Shown here one piece after another: positions 2,760 to 62,278 of a stretch of 64,000 nucleotides of DNA. The stretch is from Clostridia bacterium. GTDB taxonomy: Bacteria; Bacillota; Clostridia; Oscillospirales; CAG-272. The stretch covers positions 25,994 through 89,993 of the forward strand of contig JAFTOI010000029.1 of the NCBI GenBank assembly GCA_017463865.1. The letters run 5' to 3'. Below the pieces are notes generated by a model. It was not told where the DNA came from, ran no database searches, and worked only from the letters and a program-made list of their open reading frames with translations. The translations under genes and the position numbers were made by a program. Position 1 is the stretch's first letter. Every line of letters starts with the position of its first letter.

Positions 2760-3638
2760 TTACCCCTCTTTCCCGTCGCTCGACGCGAAATATGTCCCCG
2801 CGATCATGATGACCAGCGCCGCCAGATACGACACCGACGGCAGTTCGCGGAAGATCAGCAGTGACAGCCCCGCGCCGATGAAAGGGGCGACGGCGTAGTA
2901 GGTACTGGTCTTAGCCGCACCGAGGTCGCGCTGGGCGTAGATGTAGAAGTAGATGCTCAGCCCATACGCCACGAAGCCGAGCAGCAGGGCGCCGAGGATC
3001 GCGCCGACCGCGGGGAGCGTCTCTCCCAGCGCCAGCGCGATGCAGAGTGCCCCCAGCCCCGAGCCGAAGCCCTTGATGACCACGATCTCGAGCGGGTTCT
3101 TCAACGAGAGCATGCGGGTGCAGTTGTTCTCGAAGCCCCAGCAGACGCATGCGGCGAGGACGAGCAGTGAGCCCCACGAAAAGGAGAGGCTGCTCACGTC
3201 CTCGAAGGAGAGGATGATACTGGACAGCGTCACCAGCGCGATGGCCAGCCAGAGCCGCCGCGAGATGGCCTCGCGAAAAACGGCCAGCGCGATGACTGAG
3301 GTGGCGACGATCTCGAAGTTGTTGAGCAGGGATGCGTTGGCGGCGGTGGTCATGGTCAGGCCGAGCATGAGGCAGATAGGAGCCGCGATGTCGAGCAGTA
3401 CCATGCCAACGGTGTAAGGCAGCTCGCGCCGGGTCAGGGGCTGCTCGCGCTCCTGCCGCCCGGCCAGCCGGCGGCCGAGGCCGAGCAAAAAGAGGCCCAG
3501 CCCCGCGCCGAGGTAGAGGAAGGCGGCCATCATGGTCGCCGGGACGTGATCGAGCAGCAGCTTGGACAGCGGCGAGTTGACGGCGTAGAGCGCCGCCGCG
3601 AGAAAGGCGAAGAAGGTCGCGCGGGTTTGGGTGTTCAT
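2760..3638 (-). CDS. EamA/DMT family transporter
   Basis: 292-aa polytopic membrane ORF; N-terminus FFAFLAAALYAVNSPLSKLLL and the two-half architecture are typical of DMT/EamA. Confidence 0.8.
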   Translation of the reverse strand: MNTQTRATFFAFLAAALYAVNSPLSKLLLDHVPATMMAAFLYLGAGLGLFLLGLGRRLAGRQEREQPLTRRELPYTVGMVLLDIAAPICLMLGLTMTTAANASLLNNFEIVATSVIALAVFREAISRRLWLAIALVTLSSIILSFEDVSSLSFSWGSLLVLAACVCWGFENNCTRMLSLKNPLEIVVIKGFGSGLGALCIALALGETLPAVGAILGALLLGFVAYGLSIYFYIYAQRDLGAAKTSTYYAVAPFIGAGLSLLIFRELPSVSYLAALVIMIAGTYFASSDGKEG

Positions 3639-11883: not shown

Positions 11884-11961
11884 AAGAAATTGTAAATTTA
11901 TCAGTGCAAAGCGCTTTTCGAGAATTAACATTTAATGTAACACCGTGTAAATGTGCAAACC

Positions 11962-12254
11962 TTTTCGCGCTCCCGCGCGAGGAGGGAGAAAGGACCATCT
12001 CAGGCGCCGAATGTTCCCAGACTTGGCTTTGCCAAGTCACGAAGTCGGCCTTGCCAACTTCTGTTTCCCCCTCCCCCCTATCTACTTGGCTGGCGCGATC
12101 CAGCGTCAACAATAAGCCCCGCAACGTACGTTGCGGGGCAACTTTTATCTTATGCAGGAAGCTTCGGCGTAGCCAAGGAAGGTGGGTGTCCAGCGGGAGG
12201 GAAACTTCGGCGTCTGAGATGGTACCCTCCCGCTGGTCGCGCGGGAGCGCGAAA
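11962..12254. repeat. hairpin-terminated REPIN/MITE-like repeat, full-length long variant (copy A)
   Basis: Termini TTTTCGCGCTCCCGCGCGA and TCGCGCGGGAGCGCGAAA are inverted. Core CCATCTCAGGCGCCGAA (11995-12011) is matched by its reverse complement CTTCGGCGTCTGAGATGG (12205-12222). Related copies at 28931, 49071, 58204 and 60177. Confidence 0.85.
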
Positions 12255-12325
12255 GGCTCCAGGATAACTAAACTGCTGTCACCAAATCTTAAGTTCATGC
12301 CATTGCGCCCGGCTCTGCCTTCTTT

Positions 12326-28718: not shown

Positions 28719-28871
28719 GAATTTCACCTCCCATGTGAAAATAAAAAATCTTTCTTCCGTGGACAAGCCACCGCCGAAGAAAGACGTCAAGACAGAATAT
28801 TGGTCATGAATCGTCGCCCCTCGGCAGGAAAGCTTGCGCTTTTACCGGAACCTGCTGTCTTAGGATTAACA
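28719..28871 (-). promoter_or_regulatory. rplJ 5' leader (probable L10 autoregulatory leader)
   Basis: Untranslated leader of about 150 nt between the promoter and the rplJ start. Position matches the L10-leader arrangement known in Firmicutes; structure not verified here. Confidence 0.45.
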
Positions 28872-28877
28872 GTTTAA

Positions 28878-28906
28878 ATTATAGCACATTCGAGACTGGT
28901 TGTCAA
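28878..28906 (-). promoter_or_regulatory. sigma-70 promoter of rplJ-rplL
   Basis: Minus strand TTGACA (28901-28906), 17 nt ending in TGC, TATAAT (28878-28883). Confidence 0.65.
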
Positions 28907-28930
28907 GAGTTTTTTGAAAGTTTTTCAAAC

Positions 28931-29014
28931 TTTTTTCGTGCTCCCGCACGAGGCGGGGAAAGGACCATCTCAAACGCCGAAGTTCCTTTCCCCGCCGCCT
29001 CTATCTCCTTGGCT
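28931..29014. repeat. REPIN/MITE-like repeat, truncated left-arm copy (copy C)
   Basis: TTTTTTCGTGCTCCCGCACGA terminus, then hairpin GGCGGGGAAAGGA-[CCATCTCAAACGCCGAAGT]-TCCTTTCCCCGCC, then CTATCTCCTTGGCT, where homology stops at the thiT stop codon. Confidence 0.8.
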
Positions 29015-29675
29015 AAGCCTCCACGCGGCAGACGGTGATCTGCGGCAGCTGGGCGACGACTGCGGCGATGAGGGTGGTGACAATGATCTCGGGGATCATG
29101 TACATGCCGTTGTAAACGATCGAGTAGACGACCGACAGCGACGCGCCCGAAAAGGTGCCAAGGATGGCCTCGCCGAAGGCGCCCTGCTCGGAGAAGAACC
29201 ACTCGGCCCAAGTGCCGAAGAAGATGGCGCCCGAGACGATATGCGCCAGATAGCGCAGCGACAGGGCGACGACACAGCCGAGGCAGAGGGCAGGGGTTTT
29301 GCTCAGTTTTTTACGGAAAATGCCGCCGAGGCCGAGGACGGTGTAGGCGATGATGTAGTCGATGAGGATGACGAGCAGGGCATAACCGAGCGCCATGTAG
29401 CTGTCGCTGGACGGCAGGAAGAAGCTGGCGACGGTCGAGTGGCCCATCAGCATCTGCAGGACGGCGTAGACGAAGCCGGCGAACAGCCCCCACCGCGTAC
29501 CGAACATATAGGCGACGATGACGATGGGCAGCATGCTGGCCACGGTAAATCCGCCGCCAAAGGCCTGGTTAAGGAAGGGGATGAACTGGCAGAGCAGCGC
29601 CAGCACGCAGGCAACGGCCAGCATCATGGCGGTCAGGATCAGCCGCTGTGTTTTGGTTTTCTTCAAAGAAAACAC
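29013..29675 (-). CDS. thiT: energy-coupling factor thiamine transporter S component ThiT
   Basis: 220-aa, 6-TM protein resembling ThiT; directly preceded by a TPP riboswitch. Confidence 0.75.
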   Translation of the reverse strand: MFSLKKTKTQRLILTAMMLAVACVLALLCQFIPFLNQAFGGGFTVASMLPIVIVAYMFGTRWGLFAGFVYAVLQMLMGHSTVASFFLPSSDSYMALGYALLVILIDYIIAYTVLGLGGIFRKKLSKTPALCLGCVVALSLRYLAHIVSGAIFFGTWAEWFFSEQGAFGEAILGTFSGASLSVVYSIVYNGMYMIPEIIVTTLIAAVVAQLPQITVCRVEA

Positions 29676-29711: not shown

Positions 29712-29739
29712 GTTCGTATCGAAGGCAACATGCTTCCGT

Positions 29740-29830
29740 CAAAACTCCCTACGCCGGTATTATCCGAATCAGGTTAAAGGGTTCGGGCGGCGCCCGTCTC
29801 AGCCGATTGCTCAGCACCCCTGTTTGTTCT
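29740..29830 (-). promoter_or_regulatory. TPP (THI-box) riboswitch
   Basis: Minus strand AGGGGTGCTGAGCAATCGGCTGAGACGGG...ACCCTTTAACCTGATTCGGATAATACCGGCGTAGGGAG matches the THI element consensus (CTGAGA, ACCTGAT, GGATAATGCCAGCGTAGGGA-like). Confidence 0.9.
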
Positions 29831-29851
29831 TCACTTCTCGTGCGTGGCTTT

Positions 29852-34164: not shown

Positions 34165-34240
34165 TGGAGCGGATTACGGGGCTCGAACCCGCCACCTCGA
34201 CCTTGGCAAGGTCGCGCTCTACCAAATGAGCTAAATCCGC
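34165..34240 (-). tRNA. tRNA-Gly (GCC)
   Basis: Reverse complement GCGGATTTAGCTCATTTGGTAGAGCGCGACCTTGCCAAGGTCGAGG...GGGTTCGAGCCCC...CCA; anticodon loop TTGCCAA. Confidence 0.9.
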
Positions 34241-34244
34241 AAAG

Positions 34245-34321
34245 TGGCGACCCGAAGGGGACTCGAACCCCTGACCTCTAGCGTGACAGGCTAGCGTTCT
34301 AACCAACTGAACTACCGGGCC
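34245..34321 (-). tRNA. tRNA-Asp (GTC)
   Basis: Reverse complement GGCCCGGTAGTTCAGTTGGTTAGAACGCTAGCCTGTCACGCTAG...GGTTCGAGTCC...GCCA. Confidence 0.9.
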
Positions 34322-34326
34322 AAATA

Positions 34327-34402
34327 TGGAGCGGATTACGGGGCTCGAACCCGCCACCTCGACCTTGGCAAGGTCGCGCTCTACCAAATGAGCTAAATCC
34401 GC
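34327..34402 (-). tRNA. tRNA-Gly (GCC), identical copy 2
   Basis: Same sequence as 34165..34240. Confidence 0.9.
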
Positions 34403-34433
34403 ATAGGGTTGGGAGAGGATTTATCCTCTCCCA

Positions 34434-34508
<75 letters not shown>

Positions 34509-34598
34509 ATGGGGAAGACGAGGACCCAGCAAGCAAATGTTTACTGCGTCCTCGTCGTTGCCGCCCGCTTTGCCATCGACGGGCATGCTTGGAAATTA

Positions 34599-34674
34599 TG
34601 GAGCGGATTACGGGGCTCGAACCCGCCACCTCGACCTTGGCAAGGTCGCGCTCTACCAAATGAGCTAAATCCGC
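34599..34674 (-). tRNA. tRNA-Gly (GCC), identical copy 3
   Basis: Same sequence as 34165..34240. Confidence 0.9.
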
Positions 34675-34676
34675 AG

Positions 34677-34752
34677 TGGTGCCTCCGGTCGGAATCGAAC
34701 CAACGACACGGGGATTTTCAGTCCCCTGCTCTACCAACTGAGCTACAGAGGC
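34677..34752 (-). tRNA. tRNA-Phe (GAA)
   Basis: Reverse complement GCCTCTGTAGCTCAGTTGGTAGAGCAGGGGACTGAAAATCCCCGTGTCGTTGGTTCGATTCCGACCGGAGGCACCA. Confidence 0.9.
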
Positions 34753-34756
34753 AAAA

Positions 34757-34833
34757 TGGCGACCCGAAGGGGACTCGAACCCCTGACCTCTAGCGTGACA
34801 GGCTAGCGTTCTAACCAACTGAACTACCGGGCC
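34757..34833 (-). tRNA. tRNA-Asp (GTC), identical copy 2
   Basis: Same sequence as 34245..34321. Confidence 0.9.
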
Positions 34834-34836
34834 GAA

Positions 34837-34912
34837 TGGTGGGAACAACAGGGCTCGAACCTGTGACCCTCTGCTTGTAAGGCAGATGCTCTCCCAGCTG
34901 AGCTATGCTCCC
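34837..34912 (-). tRNA. tRNA-Val (TAC)
   Basis: Reverse complement GGGAGCATAGCTCAGCTGGGAGAGCATCTGCCTTACAAGCAGAGGGTCACAGGTTCGAGCCCTGTTGTTCCCACCA. Confidence 0.9.
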
Positions 34913-47978: not shown

Positions 47979-49031
47979 TTAGGCTTCAGTGTCGGGCTTG
48001 TCCTCTTCGGTGCGGGACTGCTTTTCGGCAGTCGACTGCATGACCGACTGGGCGACCTTCTTCTCGACGCTGACGCGGCCGCGGGTCTTCTTCTTCTCCT
48101 CGCTGGTGTCGACGATGGTGATGAAGATGTCCTCGAGGCTCATGCCGAGGGCTTCGAGACCGATCATCGGCCAATTCTTCTCGGCCAGGGTGTAGAAGAG
48201 GTTCTTGCGGATATCAACGCCGACCTCGCTCTCGATCATGTAGGTATAGGCGTCGCCGTCGCGCTCGGCCAGGGCCTCGGCGTAGACGATGCCGGGCTTA
48301 GACTTGAGCATGGCGAGCACCTCGCGCTGCGGGCCGGCGATCTTGACGTTGAAGCGGCGCTTGCTCTCAACGGCGCGGGTGATGTTCTCGGTCAGCTCGT
48401 CCGCGACGATCTTACCCTTGTTGATGATAACAATGCGATCGCAGACGGCCTGCACCTCCTGCAGGATGTGGGTCGAGAGGATAACGGTATGGTCGCGGCC
48501 AAGGTTGCGGATGAGGTTGCGGATCTCGATGATCTGCTTGGGGTCAAGGCCGACGGTCGGCTCGTCAAAGATGATGACCTTCGGGTTGCCGATCAGGGCC
48601 TGCGCGATGCCGACGCGCTGGCGGTAACCCTTGGAGAGGTTGCGGATGACGCGCTTGCGCACATCGGTGATCTTGACAACCTCGCAGATCTCGGCGAGGT
48701 GCTTCTCGCGGTTGAGGGTGCAGTTCTTGAGGTCATAGCCGAAGTTCAGGTACTCGTCGACAGTCATGTCGAGGTAGAGGGGGGGCTGCTCGGGCAGGAA
48801 GCCGATGAGCTTCTTGGCCTCCAGCGGGTTCTCGAGGACATCGAGGCCGCCGACGGTGACCGTGCCGGACGTGGCCGACAGATACCCGGTGAGGATATTC
48901 ATGGTCGTGGACTTGCCCGCGCCGTTCGGCCCGAGGAACCCGACAATCTCGCCCTCACCGACCGAGAAGCTGATGTCGTCCACGGCATAATTTGCACCGT
49001 AACGCTTGATCAGGTGGTCGATTTTAATCAT
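47979..49031 (-). CDS. ABC transporter ATP-binding protein (GldA-like)
   Basis: Walker A GPNGAGKST, signature LSKGYRQR, Walker B VIIFDEPTVGLD; acidic and basic C-terminal tail. Confidence 0.9.
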   Translation of the reverse strand: MIKIDHLIKRYGANYAVDDISFSVGEGEIVGFLGPNGAGKSTTMNILTGYLSATSGTVTVGGLDVLENPLEAKKLIGFLPEQPPLYLDMTVDEYLNFGYDLKNCTLNREKHLAEICEVVKITDVRKRVIRNLSKGYRQRVGIAQALIGNPKVIIFDEPTVGLDPKQIIEIRNLIRNLGRDHTVILSTHILQEVQAVCDRIVIINKGKIVADELTENITRAVESKRRFNVKIAGPQREVLAMLKSKPGIVYAEALAERDGDAYTYMIESEVGVDIRKNLFYTLAEKNWPMIGLEALGMSLEDIFITIVDTSEEKKKTRGRVSVEKKVAQSVMQSTAEKQSRTEEDKPDTEA

Positions 49032-49070
49032 AATCGCAATCCTTTCTGAATTGAATCAAAGTAATAAATC

Positions 49071-49145
49071 GGGAAACTTCGGCGTCTGATGATGGTAGCT
49101 GTGGCCAATGGCCAGAGCGCTCCGACTCGCGCGGGAGCGCGAAAA
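49071..49145. repeat. REPIN/MITE-like repeat, solo right-arm fragment (copy E)
   Basis: GGGAAACTTCGGCGTCTGA(T)GATGGTA ... CTCGCGCGGGAGCGCGAAAA matches the right arm and terminus of copies A and D. Confidence 0.7.
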
Positions 49146-56732: not shown

Positions 56733-58198
56733 CCCACAGCTTGCTCTACGCCCCCGGGCGCGTCCCCGAAGCCGCACCCCGCGCCGATGAATCGATCCTC
56801 ACCGCCCTCTCGCTCGACCGGGCGCTCACTATCATCCTCCCCGACGTGGGCGAACGCCGCTATGTCTCAGCCCTCCTCGCCGCCCCCCTCTCCGATGCAG
56901 GCGACATCACCTACCGCCAGGCCGTCATGCGCAATTTCCTCGATCATCCCGCCATGCTGCCCGCGTGGCAGACGCTCTTCGGGCGGTTGCTCGAGCTGCG
57001 CCGCGCTTACGAAGAAGACCGCCGCCAGCGCATCAGCGCGACGGCACGGGCGCGGGAGGCCGCCCTCTTCGGTGAGGCGAAGTCGCGGTTGCAGATGGCC
57101 GCGCTGACGCTGAAGCGGCTCCTGCTCCTCATCGGCGAGATGCACGAGCGGCTGTCGGGCTATCCCGTCTCGGCCGAGGGACTGCGCACCGTCACCGCCC
57201 GCCTCGCCGACCTTGCCCGCGCCGAGGCGACAGCCGAGCTGATCGAGCGCTGCGGCATGCTGACCGACCTCAGCTCGTTTGCCAGCTACCGCTTCGCCCT
57301 CGCCATCGACGCCGACGGGCGCATCACCGGGCGCACCTACCTCGACCGCGCCGATAAGCCTACGCAGGCGGCAGAGCCGCCCCGCCGCCGCTTCTTCGCC
57401 CCTCGCAAAACCGAGGAAACCGCACCGCGCAAGGTCACGATCGACGCCGCCTTCCCCGCCCTGCGCCGCCAGCTGATCGGGCAGGGGCTGACCGAGGCCG
57501 CCCTCACCCTCGAGCGCATCTGCTCGGCCCTCTTCGCCGAGCTCTGCCCTCTGGCCCGGGAGCTGATCTTCTACGCCGCCGGCGTCCGCTTCGCCGCCTG
57601 CTTTGCCGAGCGCGGCCTGCCCACCGCTCTGCCCGTCATCGCCGATGACGGCACGATCAGCGGCACCGGCCTGTACGATCCGTTTCTTGCCGCCACCATG
57701 CTGGGCGGCGGCGCGATCATCCCGAACGACTTCACCATGCCCGGCGACACCCCCGGCGTGCTCGTCACCGGCGCAAACAACAGCGGCAAGACCGTCTTCC
57801 TGCGCTCGGTCGGCAGCGCGATCCTGCTGGGGCAGGCCGGCTTCCCGGTCTGCGCGGCGTCCACCGTGATCACGCCGGTGCGGACAGTGACAAGCGTCTT
57901 CGCCGCCGCCGAGAAGGCCGACGGCGTGGGCAGCGAAGCCGGCCGCTTCGAGGAAGAGGTGCGCCTGCTCAGCGACGCCGTCGACCGCGCCGCGCCGGGC
58001 GAGCTAATCCTGCTCAACGAGCCCTTCCAAACCACCGCCTACGGCGAGGGCGCGGAGGGACTGGCGGCCATCCTGCGCTATCTGCAGGCGCGCGGCACGC
58101 GCTGGGTGCTGGTGACGCACCTCGACGCGCTCCCGCCACTGGTGGGCGGCGCACTGCGGATGGTGAGCCGGGAGGATCATCGAGTGGTGGCGATATGA
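56729..58198 (+). CDS. MutS-related ATPase (domain III/V only), paralog B
   Basis: 489 aa; Walker A VTGANNSGKTVFLR, LLNEPFQTT Walker B-like, VTHLDAL; ATGA overlap with paralog A. Confidence 0.75.
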   Translation: MTHSLLYAPGRVPEAAPRADESILTALSLDRALTIILPDVGERRYVSALLAAPLSDAGDITYRQAVMRNFLDHPAMLPAWQTLFGRLLELRRAYEEDRRQRISATARAREAALFGEAKSRLQMAALTLKRLLLLIGEMHERLSGYPVSAEGLRTVTARLADLARAEATAELIERCGMLTDLSSFASYRFALAIDADGRITGRTYLDRADKPTQAAEPPRRRFFAPRKTEETAPRKVTIDAAFPALRRQLIGQGLTEAALTLERICSALFAELCPLARELIFYAAGVRFAACFAERGLPTALPVIADDGTISGTGLYDPFLAATMLGGGAIIPNDFTMPGDTPGVLVTGANNSGKTVFLRSVGSAILLGQAGFPVCAASTVITPVRTVTSVFAAAEKADGVGSEAGRFEEEVRLLSDAVDRAAPGELILLNEPFQTTAYGEGAEGLAAILRYLQARGTRWVLVTHLDALPPLVGGALRMVSREDHRVVAI

Positions 58199-58203
58199 AC
58201 GCA

Positions 58204-58476
58204 ATTCCGCGCTTCCGCGCGGGGAGGGGGAAAGGACCATCTCAGACGCCGAATGTTCCCAGACTTGGCTTCGCCAAGTCACGAAGTCGGCCTTGCCGAC
58301 TTCTGTTTCCCCCTCTTGCCGCCTCCGGCGGCAATTCACGCCCTATCTCCTTGGCTGGGCGCGCCAGCCCATAGCAAAATCAGCCCCGAAACATACGTTT
58401 CGGGGCAATTTCAGTATGTGACGCTGGAACTTCGGCGTAGCCAAGAAAGGTGGGTGTCCAGCGGGAGGGCGAAAAA
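58204..58476. repeat. REPIN/MITE-like repeat, long variant with a deleted right arm (copy B)
   Basis: Collinear with copy A from the left terminus through GTCCAGCGGGAGGG, then jumps directly to CGAAAAAG. The loop and 3' arm of the right hairpin are missing. Confidence 0.8.
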
Positions 58477-58545: not shown

Positions 58546-58785
58546 TTATTCTTCATACAGCGGCTTCGGCTGATCCACAAGTCCGAGCAGATAATCGACG
58601 GACAGATTGTAGTGCTTGGCCAAAATGATATATTTATCCACCCCCATCATCTGCTTACCGGTCTCCCACTTGCTGATCTGCTGGGAGGTGGTTTTCAGCA
58701 GGACAGCGACATCCTCCTGAGAAAGATAATGGGCTTTTCTTGCGCGCTGTAAATAATTCGGGTACGTCTTTTCGGGAGAGCTCAC
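58546..58785 (-). CDS. XRE family small HTH repressor (module 1)
   Basis: 79 aa; GTG start behind AAGGAGG; LSQEDVAVLLKTTSQQISKWETGKQMMGVDKYIILAKHYNLSVDYLLGLVDQPKPLYE; AT-rich. Confidence 0.8.
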   Translation of the reverse strand: MSSPEKTYPNYLQRARKAHYLSQEDVAVLLKTTSQQISKWETGKQMMGVDKYIILAKHYNLSVDYLLGLVDQPKPLYEE

Positions 58786-60176: not shown

Positions 60177-60399
60177 ATTTTTTCGCGCTTCTGCGCGAAA
60201 GAGGGCGGGGAGGAACCATCTCAGACGCCGAAGTTTCCTCCCCGCCCTCTTCCCGCCTGTCGGCGGGAATTCACCCACCCCACCTCCTTGGCTGGGCGTT
60301 GCCACCCCTCCAGCCAAGGAGAGTGGGTGTCCAGAGGGCGGGAAACTTCGGCGTTTGAGATGGTTCCCGCCCTCTGGTCGCGCGGGAGCGCGAAAAAAA
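60177..60399. repeat. REPIN/MITE-like repeat, compact complete variant (copy D)
   Basis: Left hairpin 60201-60249 with loop CCATCTCAGACGCCGAAGT. Hairpins 60250-60269 and 60272-60329. Right hairpin 60331-60377 with loop ACTTCGGCGTTTGAGATGG. Terminal GC hairpins at both ends. Confidence 0.85.
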
Positions 60400-60406
60400 T
60401 TTATTT

Positions 60407-60631
60407 TTAGCTATTTTCATAAAGAGGTTTCGGCTCATCGACAAGACCAGTCAGATAATCCAATGACAAATTGTAATATTTCGCTAATATAATATATTTA
60501 TCAATTCCCATCTTCTGCGCACCTCTTTCCCATTTAGCAACTTGCTGTCTCGATGTATGCAAAAGATTTGCTATATCCGTCTGCGCAAGATCATGATCTT
60601 CTCTTATCTCTTTTAACCGATTCAATTCCAT
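60407..60631 (-). CDS. XRE family small HTH repressor (module 2)
   Basis: 74 aa; AGGAGG RBS; LAQTDIANLLHTSRQQVAKWERGAQKMGIDKYIILAKYYNLSLDYLTGLVDEPKPLYE; clear paralog of 58546..58785. Confidence 0.85.
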   Translation of the reverse strand: MELNRLKEIREDHDLAQTDIANLLHTSRQQVAKWERGAQKMGIDKYIILAKYYNLSLDYLTGLVDEPKPLYENS

Positions 60632-62149: not shown

Positions 62150-62278
62150 CACCTCATCCGCCCCCTACGGGGCCACCTTCCCCTCAAGGGGAAGGCTTAC
62201 TTTGGTTCGCGGTTGCTTTGAGCCTTCCCCTCAAGGGGAAGGTGGCTTGGCCGCCCTGCGGCCAAGCCGGATGAGGTG
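62150..62278. repeat. nested-palindrome intergenic element (distinct family)
   Basis: Outer stem CACCTCATCCG / CGGATGAGGTG encloses GCCCC-CTAC-GGGGC, two copies of CCTTCCCC-TCAA-GGGGAAGG (mutually inverted 24-nt arms) and CTTGGCCG-CCCTG-CGGCCAAG. Confidence 0.8.

Follow-up and report, generated by a model that had tools for sequence, protein, structure and literature searches.

Positions 60177–60399 of the 64,000-nt stretch of DNA analyzed here (the window) contain 223 nt in which two non-coding repeat copies lie back to back, and which we term copy D. It consists of two copies of one asymmetric module of ~95 nt, inverted tail to tail. On one strand the module has the order homopurine arm, invariant 19-nt loop, homopyrimidine arm, short turn or optional hairpin, third strand and the sequence TCCTTGGCT. 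The third strand is a pyrimidine tract that mirrors the 3′ arm, and it lies directly 5′ of the invariant TCCTTGGCT. The component parts of copy D are as follows.

60178–60199, + strand: outer end of the left module; T-run and small GC hairpin CGCGC-TTCT-GCGCG
60199–60215, + strand: purine 5′ arm of the left module, AAGAGGGCGGGGAGGAA; Watson-Crick purine strand of the proposed triplex
60216–60234, + strand: invariant 19-nt loop of the left module, CCATCTCAGACGCCGAAGT; GCC(G)AAG within it is a possible pairing partner of CTTGGC in the tail
60235–60251, + strand: pyrimidine 3′ arm of the left module, TTCCTCCCCGCCCTCTT
60250–60269, + strand: optional small hairpin TTCCCGCC-TGTC-GGCGGGAA, inserted at the turn from the 3′ arm to the third strand
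60272–60287, + strand: third strand of the left module, CACCCACCCCACCTCC; complementary to the purine arm in parallel orientation, with an A facing A-T pairs as well as the C-G inversion
60285–60295, + strand: invariant tail of the left module, TCCTTGGCTGG
60296–60309, no strand: central spacer between the two tails
60310–60330, − strand: tail TCCTTGGCTGG and third strand ACACCCACTCTCC of the right module
60331–60377, − strand: hairpin of the right module; purine arm CCAGAGGGCGGGAA, loop CCATCTCAAACGCCGAAGT (60345–60363), pyrimidine arm TTCCCGCCCTCTGG
60378–60399, − strand: outer end of the right module; small GC hairpin CGCGC-TCCC-GCGCG and T-run (A-run on the + strand)

The outer end of the right module stops 8 nt from the stop codon of an HTH gene (60407–60631, − strand). 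Read in the sequence, the left hairpin is formed by GAGGGCGGGGAGGAA (60201–60215) and TTCCTCCCCGCCCTC (60235–60249) on either side of the loop, and the right hairpin by CCAGAGGGCGGGAA (60331–60344), the loop ACTTCGGCGTTTGAGATGG (60345–60363) and TTCCCGCCCTCTGG (60364–60377). The latter scores 70.2 bits with model R1. A long central stem pairs 60273–60295 with 60310–60330, and when copy D is folded whole it forms a single long hairpin.

The initial annotation of this DNA had described hairpins with covarying stems and 19-nt loops in 60177–60399, and all four of the sequence parts that it listed lie there. It had taken them for one symmetric structure. The arrangement is instead an inverted duplication joined tail to tail, and the supposed third stem is two tails (third strand plus TCCTTGGCTGG) that face each other. 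The two loops are indeed mutual reverse complements apart from one G/A position, but this follows trivially from the inversion of the two modules. A kissing interaction between them had also been suggested. Most copies outside the window, and copy B within it, are single modules without a partner loop, and therefore kissing cannot be the conserved function. The purine/pyrimidine asymmetry of the stems and the mirror-related third strand, which are the most telling features of the fold, had escaped attention.

The window holds seven copies of the module together with one decayed remnant. Allowing up to three mismatches the loop motif occurs six times (11995+, 12204−, 28965+, 58237+, 60216+ and 60345−), compared with 0.02 occurrences expected from shuffles, and a decayed seventh loop motif is found at 49075–49096 (−). 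The copies other than D are as follows.

11961–12256: copy A, a long inverted pair; left loop 11995–12013, right loop 12204–12222
28928–29016, + strand: copy B, a single module; loop 28965–28983, tail 29005–29014
49070–49144, − strand: decayed remnant; small hairpin and loop variant ACCATCATCAGACGCCGAAGTT, without arms and without tail
58205–58475: copy C, ~90% identical to copy A, with an extra hairpin at the turn

The left module of copy A is a type-2 variant, with two hairpins inserted into the 3′ arm, while a 48-nt loss between CGGGAG direct repeats has removed the loop and the outer parts from the right module of copy C. The spacer between the tails of both A and C is ~80 nt, including a bidirectional terminator-like hairpin that lies at 12116–12139 in the center of copy A. 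A scan for intrinsic terminators found none in D and only this separate central hairpin in A. The module was rejected as an intrinsic terminator, there being no T-run after the hairpin on either strand. A TTTCGCGCnnnnGCGCGA hairpin is found upstream of every module in the source genome (10 matches, compared with 1.66 expected), and the turn is occupied by hairpins of different sequence in copy C and in L019, L057, L058 and L089. All four loci in the window lie either between convergent genes or at the 3′ end of a gene and ahead of the promoter that follows, and some modules begin within 7–10 nt of a stop codon. The tail of copy B overlaps the stop codon of a gene at 29013–29675 (−). Copy B adjoins the rplJ promoter and L10 leader, and is antisense relative to both flanking genes.

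The module is a dispersed non-coding repeat that is conserved in gut Oscillospiraceae and related Clostridia, and is present hundreds of times in their MAGs and in metagenomes. A search with the loop pattern gave at least 116 genome loci and at least 120 metagenome loci. About 70 of the 116 genome loci listed are hairpin modules in gut Clostridia MAGs, and the remainder are chance matches in other phyla. None of the fetched loci was conspecific with the window; the best matches among them, at 79–80% identity, were to a chromosome of Oscillospiraceae and to a Clostridia MAG from horse gut. BLAST of phage and plasmid collections with copy D gave no match, and of six matches in viral contigs one contains real modules (L123) and five are chance matches within a coding region. 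Many metagenome contigs end inside the loop, and contigs are 2 to 20 times as deep at the element as in the flanks. The element is a repeat of gut Oscillospiraceae MAGs that is very abundant, lacks annotation and breaks assemblies, and a covariance model for it would improve the annotation of these genomes. At gathering score, neither the modules of the window nor those of 17 further loci matched an Rfam 15 family. When the E-value was relaxed, copies D and A matched only generic miRNA-hairpin models, far below threshold. A literature search with six loop strings returned no paper, and keyword searches gave the BoxC/TMECO paper as the only precedent.

The copies are intergenic, and convergent gene contexts are enriched among them. 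Single modules are found in both orientations, and inverted pairs are known at L023, L045, L072 and L090 in addition to D, A and C. For single modules the G-rich strand is weakly favored in the sense direction of the neighboring genes (65 versus 43 genes, p = 0.04), and in co-directional contexts the orientation bias is 9 versus 4 or 11 versus 3, based on crude gene calls. We clustered ORFs of ≥100 aa within 3 kb, and of 50–160 aa within 600 nt, of 92 modules. No recurrent protein family was found, and the only ORFs that clustered were those running through the repeat itself. The same neighborhoods contained no HUH/Y1, RAYT-like or other loop-binding candidate gene beside any copy and no transposase, nor was there a module copy with an internal coding gene. 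The genes lying between divergent module pairs at L131 and L171 encode galactokinase, an MBL-fold protein, DeoC, FtsW and RecD2.

The genomic setting bears upon one alternative, that the module is an independent small-RNA gene or a riboswitch-like cis-regulatory leader of the downstream gene. The region lying ~35 nt upstream of the copies in low-GC MAGs is conserved and vaguely promoter-like, in agreement with such a role. However, this motif recurs inverted downstream, and is thus the arm of an inverted repeat rather than a promoter. Moreover, the window copies have no conserved promoter upstream, the neighbors are unrelated housekeeping genes, and just 3–5 of 21–25 single modules lie upstream of a gene of the same orientation at a divergent site. 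A small-RNA gene or leader is therefore very improbable.

We examined covariation in the stem using 51 distinct hairpins, taken from the window and 47 other loci, that were collected by the loop pattern with the requirement that 9 of the 10 inner pairs be paired. The fraction of paired cells is 90.8%, compared with 68.2% in shuffles, although because of this selection both the percentage paired and the invariance of the loop are partly built in. That does not apply to double-sided changes. These are present in 227 cells, compared with 69.6 ± 9.0 in shuffles and at most 44 in slid controls, and 15 of the 16 stem pairs covary. The inner 12 pairs comprise 321 G-C, 238 A-T, 27 C-G, 2 T-A, 4 G-T or T-G and 9 A-C, so that wobble pairs are nearly absent at ~1%. 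Across the copies ~91% of positions in the 5′ arm are purine. Wobble asymmetry was tried as a means of choosing the strand and gave no preference, with G-T counts of 4 and 7, A-C counts of 9 and 4, plus one C-A.

A less biased check on conservation of the loop is to anchor the count on the tail. There are 84 TCCTTGGCT sites in Clostridia loci; the exact 18-nt loop core is found upstream of 59, and a core with a one-base difference upstream of 10. The stem is free to vary while the fold is kept, and the loop is nearly invariant across many species. The compensatory differences noted in the initial annotation are correct, both between the copy at 28952 and the left hairpin of D (pairs 2, 4 and 6) and between the right hairpins of A and D (two swapped pairs). 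Its conclusion that selection acts upon a folded single-stranded form, rather than a duplication simply decaying, is upheld by stems that covary across genomes, by a third segment that does likewise, and by orthologous loci that change in a coordinated manner.

The third strand covaries with the stem in a parallel register, such that G-C pairs face C, and A-T pairs face T or A. The mirror score of the third strand with the stem of its own copy is 14.5. Permuted pairings give 11.16 ± 0.31, and none of 10,000 reaches 14.5. The relationship is specific to register, with a 63.7% match at offset +1 compared with 38–49% at other offsets. In total the third strand matches at 419 of 611 positions, compared with 303 ± 9.9 when permuted (maximum 346 in 5000). 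Pair counting over named columns gives covariation of 0.511 versus 0.273 and 0.300 versus 0.202; neither value is reached in 500 shuffles, and slid controls are lower than the true register. The result was replicated with 34 new distinct copies, giving a 67.0% match compared with at most 46.8%, and 296 matches in 442 positions compared with 213 ± 8.1. A direct-repeat control is flat (11.2 versus 10.6), and this rules out a third strand that is Watson-Crick paired with the purine arm.

The same behavior can be seen in a single pair of orthologous loci. L015 and L104 have flanks that are 86–92% identical, and one position has changed from a C-G pair with a third-strand A to an A-T pair with a third-strand T. 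Stem and third strand are shown to covary jointly in the register of a triple helix. Judged from the sequences, this pattern of covariation corresponds to an intrastrand triple-helix design. The order and polarity of the blocks would allow Watson-Crick plus (reverse) Hoogsteen pairing, in class III on the loop strand or class I on its complement.

The base code is informative about the motif. G-C pairs face C in 80% of cases and A-T pairs face T in 61%, while 14% of G-C pairs face a third-strand T that fits neither triplex motif. Third-strand A is found opposite 57 of 213 A-T pairs and 15 of 38 C-G pairs, but only 4 of 349 G-C pairs. On the complementary strand the corresponding triplets are T.A-T and T.C-G. 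Around 83% of triplets are canonical under the purine motif (complementary strand), compared with 73% under the pyrimidine motif. In addition, the GCC(G)AAG part of the loop may pair with CTTGGC in the tail as a pseudoknot. Both partners are nearly invariant, and the rare variants comprise three wobble-compatible and three disruptive changes. The partner sequences reappear as local hairpins in variants, as CTTGGC-TTT-GCCAAG in type-2 copies and as CCTTGGCT-ACGCCGAAGTT in A-right, C-right and L020.

Could a tetraplex be the selected fold? There are at least four G-tracts on the complementary strand (third strand plus arm), and four C-tracts on the loop strand, that might form a G-quadruplex or i-motif respectively. 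The stems are G-rich, and many copies have GGGG-N-GGGG in mirror arrangement (L068, L057). Yet copies that are A-rich and G-poor keep the relationship, with A-runs matched by T-runs (L021, L076), and a tetraplex requires neither Watson-Crick complementarity of the arms nor mirroring position by position. We give this explanation hardly any weight.

The module might also be an ordinary MITE or REP-like selfish palindrome that forms no triplex. Its arms would be kept by hairpin-templated repair, template switching or gene conversion, and the third-strand relationship would be a by-product of polypyrimidine composition. Several properties are those of a mobile repeat. Copies D, A and C are bounded by long terminal inverted repeats, inverted CAGAGTGTCGACAAAAG motifs are found on both sides of the module in RGIG and LOHA MAGs, and copies A and C retain ~90% identity while lying 46 kb apart. 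Truncated and nested copies exist, and near-identical copies are present within some genomes (L011, L028). Template switching, however, generates inverted repeats and not a mirror (parallel-complement) repeat, and the third-strand signal is register-specific with a flat direct-repeat control, is replicated on independent copies and changes in coordination between orthologues. No direct repeat that could be a target-site duplication flanks A, C or D, there is no transposase nearby or copy with an internal coding gene, and the plasmid and phage collections lack the element. A loop that is invariant across species combined with freely varying stems is the opposite of a terminal inverted repeat recognized as a duplex. 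A search of related strains gave no clean empty site for copy D, and the joints seen ran between different repeat copies. We consider the explanation without a triplex improbable.

A role as RNA is possible, though we think it rather unlikely. The strand containing CCAUCUCARACGCCGAAGU would be transcribed by read-through out of adjacent genes, and would fold into an H-type pseudoknot comprising the hairpin and pairing of the loop GCC(G)AAG with the tail CUUGGC, the long strand that connects them occupying the major groove as a pyrimidine-motif triple helix (C+.G-C and U.A-U). Its function might be 3′-end protection, processing or termination, in the manner of REP stabilizers or the ENE, and inverted pairs would serve transcripts in both directions. 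The order purine, pyrimidine, Hoogsteen pyrimidine is class III, which is able to form in RNA (PMC4666352). The predominance of C opposite G-C and of T opposite A-T agrees with the pyrimidine motif, as do the location at gene 3′ ends and the enrichment at convergent sites with a role at transcript ends, and the recurrence of the tail and loop partners as local hairpins is in keeping with their pairing. The element is covered by contigs of three RNA-labeled runs (unstranded), but its depth relative to the flanks is no higher than in DNA runs. Moreover, four to five adjacent C+.G-C triplets would be unfavorable at neutral pH, and the 27–33% of A-U pairs that face A do not form a pyrimidine-motif triplet. 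For an RNA helix that covaries, a wobble frequency of ~1% is very low. Antisense is the commoner orientation of single modules relative to adjacent genes, copy B being antisense to both of its own, and the module has neither a U-tract following the structure, nor a conserved promoter, nor an Rfam match. If the RNA explanation is correct, the module would be a bacterial counterpart of the ENE-type triple-helix stability elements.

Our tentative preference, held at a little below even confidence, is for a model in which the G-rich strand, as single-stranded DNA, forms a REP-like structure and presents the loop to a protein. The module would fold into an intrastrand triplex-hairpin when single-stranded, which might occur in the lagging-strand template, in the non-template strand of a transcription bubble or in an extruded cruciform. 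The complementary, G-rich strand would be the most likely one to fold, giving a purine-motif triplex of class I (G.G-C, A.A-T and T.A-T) capped by pairing of AGCCAAG with the loop sequence CTTCGGC. This would leave ~11 invariant loop bases exposed as the putative recognition site of a conserved trans-acting protein. Selection on the fold would keep the copies intact. In its behavior the family resembles REP/BIME and BoxC/PIT elements, being very abundant and located as single modules or inverted doublets in intergenic positions at gene ends, and spreading sometimes as composite units (copies A and C). The structure might be used for mobilization and homogenization by a RAYT-like enzyme, or for a host function such as polymerase pausing at gene ends. 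At gene ends the element may influence termination, mRNA ends or local rearrangement.

The G-rich DNA strand is favored because of the triplets formed by third-strand A, the published rules for triplex formation, the scarcity of wobble pairs, the lack of a conserved promoter and the weak excess in orientation. It has been reported that RNA does not form purine-motif triplexes, and runs of C+.G-C require low pH (PMC4666352). The preference for the purine motif is tentative, as it stems from one class of triplet together with these literature rules. A number of observations count against the DNA model. A loop of 19 nt disfavors cruciform extrusion from duplex DNA, the G-C pairs with third-strand T lie outside both motifs, and G-runs on the G-rich strand could form quadruplexes. 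The bias in orientation is weak, no candidate for a loop-binding enzyme is found near any copy, and the coverage by RNA-labeled contigs makes read-through transcription, and with it a role as RNA, possible.

A stronger form of the proposal is that a triple helix of 12–16 triplets is the selected core of a REP-like system in gut Clostridia, its stem and Hoogsteen strand having evolved together at hundreds of loci, and that it acts as a rigid scaffold presenting the invariant 19-nt loop to a loop-specific enzyme. This is speculative, and we regard it as possible rather than probable. If true, this would be the first family, as far as we have found, in which an intramolecular triple helix in cells is attested by three-way covariation and not just by the potential of the sequence.

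Several known systems share features with the module. The hairpin origins and nick sites of HUH enzymes (in CRESS-DNA viruses and rolling-circle plasmids) and integron attC sites have a conserved sequence in or beside a hairpin, the stem of which is free in sequence but must pair, and are substrates as folded single-stranded DNA. These are single-copy, with short loops and no third strand, and lie beside a Rep or integrase gene, whereas no such gene lies beside the modules. Among RNA species there are triple-helix pseudoknots in the SAM-II, SAM-V and preQ1-II riboswitches, telomerase RNA and ENE/MALAT1. Like the module they have a strand in the major groove of a helix followed by a second helix, and they use a pyrimidine-motif base code. 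They contain 3–10 triples, mostly U.A-U, and are single-copy cis elements associated with defined genes. The module in contrast has 12–16 G-rich positions, hundreds of copies in either orientation, A opposite A-T pairs, and no match in Rfam.

Bacterial MITEs such as Correia/NEMIS, RUP, BOX and ERIC resemble the module family in being small, non-coding and intergenic, with terminal inverted repeats, long hairpins as RNA, and terminators as in copies A and C. The basic unit here is a single asymmetric module rather than a pair of terminal inverted repeats, however, and such repeats are absent from single modules like copy B. No parental IS or target-site duplication was found, and covariation of stem and third strand indicates a constraint on the fold rather than on duplex ends. 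REP, BIME and REPIN elements are short extragenic palindromes present in hundreds of copies at gene ends, and the associated RAYT (TnpA-REP) is a Y1 HUH enzyme whose gene typically has the repeats on either side. REPs are 20–40 nt long; their 5′ GTAG is conserved and their stem sequence is specific to the species, and they are presumed to act as folded single strands recognized by an enzyme in trans. Both families occur singly, as inverted doublets and as mosaics with other hairpin motifs, and their copies evolve as a population. The module differs in its length of ~95 nt, a conserved loop shared across species, a third strand, the lack of a GTAG foot and the lack of a RAYT-like gene within 3 kb of any of the 92 modules.

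The closest known kind is the BoxC/PIT/TMECO group of intrastrand triplex repeats of enterobacteria and cyanobacteria (Hoyne et al. 2000; Holder et al. 2015, PMC4666352). These are intergenic without strand bias, sometimes occur as inverted pairs, and form a triplex in vitro (PMC4666352), although in vivo DMS footprinting of TMECO did not support stable triplex formation. Both families have three consecutive homopurine or homopyrimidine blocks on one strand that are capable of forming a triplex, and both are dispersed and intergenic, with no link to gene function, no strong strand bias and some inverted pairs. BoxC/PIT/TMECO repeats are not found on phages, plasmids or transposons, and the module likewise has no match in plasmid and phage collections and no transposase nearby.

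The two families differ in architecture. TMECO belongs to class II (Y-R-RH); its 9-nt stems are highly conserved in sequence, and its loops of 3–6 nt less so. The module belongs to class III when read on the loop strand and to class I on the G-rich strand, with variable stems of 12–17 positions and a nearly invariant first loop of 19 nt. Its 9-nt tail is invariant and may pair with the loop, and the turn can accommodate additional hairpins. Its block order, 19-nt loop and variable stems do not match the TMECO consensus CCCTCNCCC-N3-6-GGGNGAGGG-N3-GGGNGAGGG. Published searches for triplex repeats allowed loops of 0–10 nt (Hoyne et al.) or 1–6 nt (ITxF), which excludes a loop of 19 nt (PMC4666352). 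The role of intrastrand triplexes in bacteria has been open since the description of BoxC/PIT, and those repeats are too conserved for their evolution to inform on the fold (PMC4666352). The module family is the opposite case, with a fold that is retained while the sequence varies freely, and the covariation evidence lacking for TMECO is present. Its hundreds of combinations of stem and third strand make up a natural mutational series that follows a code of G-C with C, A-T with T or A, and C-G with A. Given a free sequence and a kept fold, the question of the triplex is directly testable in this family.

The repeat unit was defined from an alignment of copies A, C and D of the window and from the sequence around 130 loop matches in other genomes. 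It is an asymmetric module with the order purine-rich 5' arm, 19-nt loop, pyrimidine 3' arm, C/T-rich stretch and invariant TCCTTGGCT(G) tail; in the window genome a T-run and a small GC hairpin precede the 5' arm. Allowing up to three mismatches, six occurrences of the loop motif were found where 0.02 are expected in the window, and these fall into four loci, A to D, all at gene ends.

Repeat copies and nearby features in the window. The parts of copy D were read in the sequence; the L10 leader, riboswitch and tRNA genes are from Rfam and ARAGORN annotation.
11961-12256: copy A, between stop codon 12326 and a perfect promoter at 11883-11855 (-)
12116-12139: central bidirectional terminator-like hairpin of the composite unit (copy A)
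28734-28882: L10 leader
28928-29016: copy B, single module; tail overlaps the stop codon of gene 29013-29675 (-); adjoins the rplJ promoter and L10 leader
29729-29831: TPP riboswitch, upstream of the membrane-protein gene 29013-29675 (-)
34165-34912: cluster of eight tRNA genes
49070-49144 (-): decayed fifth copy, retaining small hairpin TTTCGCGCTCCCGCGCGA and loop variant ACCATCATCAGACGCCGAAGTT
58205-58475: copy C, between convergent genes ending at 58198 and 58546
60177-60399: copy D, between stop codon 60407 and promoter 60165-60137 (-)
60178-60198 and 60378-60398: outer ends of D, T-run and small GC hairpin CGCGC-nnnn-GCGCG
60201-60249: left hairpin of D, GAGGGCGGGGAGGAA / loop CCATCTCAGACGCCGAAGT / TTCCTCCCCGCCCTC
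60250-60269: small hairpin of D, TTCCCGCC-TGTC-GGCGGGAA
60273-60295 paired with 60310-60330: long central stem of D
60331-60377: right hairpin of D, CCAGAGGGCGGGAA / loop ACTTCGGCGTTTGAGATGG / TTCCCGCCCTCTGG

The initial annotation described copy D as four parts, and this matches the sequence exactly. Judged from the alignment, however, D shows two asymmetric modules joined tail to tail as an inverted pair. The long stem does pair, but it is two module tails facing each other rather than a separate part. The two loops are indeed complementary, solely as a consequence of the inversion. Loop-loop pairing was ruled out as a conserved feature, since the module stands alone in copy B and in most copies elsewhere. 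Folded over its full length as RNA, D gives one long hairpin of -168 kcal/mol (z = -16). Copies A and C are composite units, ~90% identical, each with a left type-2 module (two hairpins inside the 3' arm), a central hairpin and a right module. The right module of C (58462-58475, compared with 12196-12250 in A) lacks 48 nt, which took in the loop, the outer arm and the greater part of the small hairpin. The lost stretch lies between direct repeats of CGGGAG, as a deletion by strand slippage would. The decayed copy has lost the purine arm, pyrimidine arm and tail. It sits just upstream of a gene start near 49031, and the related locus L002 has no module at the matching place.

Stem covariation was examined in 51 distinct hairpins of 16 + 19 + 16 nt (alignment A2). 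Double-sided changes occur at 15 of the 16 stem pairs and fill 227 cells; column shuffles gave 69.6 ± 9.0 such cells and slid controls no more than 44. Paired cells amount to 90.8% (68.2% in shuffles), although selection of the set by loop pattern and pairing at nine of ten inner pairs partly builds in this percentage and the constancy of the loop, but not the double-sided changes. Copies found by covariance model instead of exact pattern have loops differing by 1-3 bases, and among 84 TCCTTGGCT tails in Clostridia loci the exact loop core lies upstream in 59, and is one base off in 10. The inner 12 pairs comprise 321 G-C, 238 A-T, 27 C-G and 2 T-A. The 5' arm is ~91% purine, and wobble pairs are nearly missing (4 G-T or T-G and 9 A-C, of 612). 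These two properties go beyond those of an ordinary hairpin.

The C/T-rich stretch before TTGGCT is the complement of the purine arm read in the same direction, and thus a mirror image of the 3' arm. Local alignment of each arm with its own tail scored 14.5, compared with 11.16 ± 0.31 on permutation (0 of 10000 reach 14.5); a direct-repeat control gave 11.2 compared with 10.6. Without gaps, arm and third strand match at 63.7% of positions at offset +1 and 38-49% at other offsets, the +1 matches being 419/611 compared with 303 ± 9.9 permuted (maximum 346 of 5000). Pair counting found columns 11-14 paired with 63-66 in 73.9% (57.0 ± 1.8 expected), with a covariation score of 0.511 compared with 0.273 (0/500 reach it; slid ≤0.32); for columns 7-10 with 59-62 the values are 84.6% (73.5 ± 1.3) and 0.300 compared with 0.202 (0/500). 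The result was replicated in 34 new distinct metagenome copies, with 67.0% at offset +1 and at most 46.8% elsewhere (296/442 matches compared with 213 ± 8.1 permuted). A base code emerges: stem G-C faces third-strand C (80%) or T (14%), A-T faces T (61%) or A (27%), and the inversion C-G most often faces A. The window copies follow it, the D-left arm AAGAGGGCGGGGAGGAA facing third strand TTCACCCACCCCACCTCC. At one position of the orthologous loci L015 and L104 (flanks 86-92% identical), C-G with third-strand A in the first corresponds to A-T with third-strand T in the second. The turn between 3' arm and third strand is the exact site at which variable hairpins have been inserted in D-left (60250-60269), copy C, L019, L057, L058 and L089.

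Intramolecular triplexes classically have the order purine, loop, pyrimidine, turn, pyrimidine seen in the module, and no polymerase-based process is known to produce mirror repeats. We therefore read the three-way covariation as evidence that selection acts on a triple-helical fold, and the module would actually form such a triplex. The main inference of the initial annotation, selection on a folded form, is thus borne out by stem and third-strand covariation together, the latter adding a stronger and unexpected layer.

Folding of the loop strand would give a class III pyrimidine-motif triplex (C+.G-C, T/U.A-T), and that of the complementary G-rich strand a class I purine-motif triplex (G.G-C, A.A-T, T.A-T), following published nomenclature and triplet rules (PMC4666352). 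Third-strand A shows high specificity, facing 57/213 A-T, 15/38 C-G and 4/349 G-C pairs, with the same trend in the 34-copy replication set. On the G-rich strand this A reads as T.A-T and T.C-G, so that ~83% of triplets are canonical compared with 73% for the pyrimidine motif. C+.G-C runs of four or five triplets require low pH, and RNA reportedly does not form purine-motif triplexes (PMC4666352); both points lean towards G-rich single-stranded DNA. So do the scarcity of wobble pairs in the 51-hairpin and replication sets and the lack of a promoter or U-tract for the module in the window copies scanned. A 'promoter-like' motif upstream of low-GC copies recurs inverted downstream of the module. 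The G-rich strand is in the sense of neighbouring genes in weak excess (65 compared with 43 genes, p = 0.04; 9 compared with 4, or 11 compared with 3, in co-directional contexts), and would then in most cases serve as lagging-strand template and as non-template strand. On these several points, none decisive, we lean towards folding of the G-rich strand as single-stranded DNA, and infer DNA rather than RNA as the folding form. RNA-labelled runs do include contigs that cover the element; these carry no strand information, and their ratio of element to flank does not exceed that of DNA runs.

The tail CTTGGC is complementary to loop GCC(G)AAG with one bulged G, and a loop-tail pseudoknot is possible on this basis. 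If formed, this helix would lie stacked on the stem at the point reached by the third strand, leaving ~11 invariant loop bases unpaired; the loop may be recognized by a protein. Both partners are nearly invariant, and rare variants are compatible in three cases and disruptive in three. Type-2 copies have a CTTGGC-TTT-GCCAAG hairpin beside the loop, and in A-right (12171-12195 (-)), C-right (58425-58448 (-)) and L020 (2170-2195) a second copy of the 3' half of the loop immediately follows the tail, giving a local CCTTGGCT-ACGCCGAAGTT hairpin. Such juxtaposition of both partners is circumstantial support for the proposed helix.

A scan of one genome per species with the pattern CCATCTCARRCGCCGAA gave at least 116 loci. 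About 70 of the 116 listed are real hairpin modules, in MAGs labelled Clostridia, Eubacteriales, Oscillospiraceae, Ruminococcaceae and Candidatus Flemingiibacterium from human, horse, deer, sheep and goat gut; the remainder are chance matches in coding regions of unrelated phyla. Metagenomes gave at least 120 loci, and a large share of these contigs (L127-L246) start or stop inside the loop or a few bases from it, the signature of a high-copy repeat. The repeat is thus a frequent assembly breakpoint in gut metagenomes. Contig depth at the element in DNA runs is 2- to 20-fold that of the flanks, and local density is ~1 module per 4-10 kb (window, L131, L171). The window belongs to an uncultured gut bacterium, and its best matches among the loci compared are an Oscillospiraceae chromosome and a horse-gut Clostridia MAG, at 79-80% identity. 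No match for the repeat was found in Rfam 15, the phage and plasmid collections searched, or full-text literature searched by sequence.

Neighbouring genes across loci are unrelated and housekeeping, and no transposase or other recurrent protein was found near the modules. Paralogous HTH genes (58546-58785 (-) and 60407-60631 (-)) each end beside a right-hand module. The segment 58189-59062, between a MutS-domain gene and a 347-aa gene, carries copy C along with a small HTH gene of XRE type; in ~91% identical relatives (contigs, runs X18 and X25) it is replaced by 772-1339 unrelated bases, so this repeat-bounded region varies between strains. A different palindromic element lies at 62172-62246, between two - strand ORFs; its two arms of 26 nt are separated by 23 nt, show 92% complementarity and are each a hairpin in their own right (CCTTCCCCTCAAGGGGAAGG). 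Near-identical copies within some genomes (A/C; L011/L028) indicate recent spread, and the retention of orthologous copies with coordinated changes indicates that the module has long persisted under constraint. Truncated and nested copies exist. In L023 (4905-4990 (-)) and L123 (13880-13974) a purine arm and CCATCTCAGAC(R)CC run directly into a second module that is complete; in L023 both arms of a large inverted repeat (~650 nt) have this arrangement.

Some MAGs have the module within mosaics that also contain a second hairpin family of conserved loop (..CAAGTATTTG..) and inverted CAGAGTGTCGACAAAAG motifs, an arrangement that, in deer and other gut MAGs, recalls BIMEs by analogy. The second family (L027, L032, L058, L060, L073, L099) has a conserved loop-proximal core ..GNCAAGTATTTGNC.. 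and a covarying outer stem, and often flanks the module on both sides, adjoining the inverted motifs (e.g. L060, about 3270-3300 and 3470-3495). The module family behaves like REP/BIME/REPIN elements but does not show the sequence features that define them, and no RAYT was found near module copies. Its paired form has terminal inverted repeats like a MITE, but neither target duplication nor parental IS was found.

Among described repeats the nearest are the BoxC/PIT/TMECO intrastrand triplex repeats of enterobacteria and cyanobacteria. Like the module family these are intergenic, have no functional link to their neighbours, show no strong strand bias and sometimes occur as inverted pairs. Their triplex formed in vitro while that of the module is predicted from covariation, and their in vivo footprints were negative. 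The block order differs (class I/III for the module, class II for BoxC/PIT/TMECO), as do stem length and stem variability, and only the module family has an invariant 19-nt loop, an invariant tail and covariation. Published triplex-repeat searches set the upper limit of loop length at 6 or 10 nt (PMC4666352), and therefore excluded it. Membership of TMECO, REP or any Rfam family was rejected, and we would file the module family as allied to the intrastrand-triplex and REP-like repeats.
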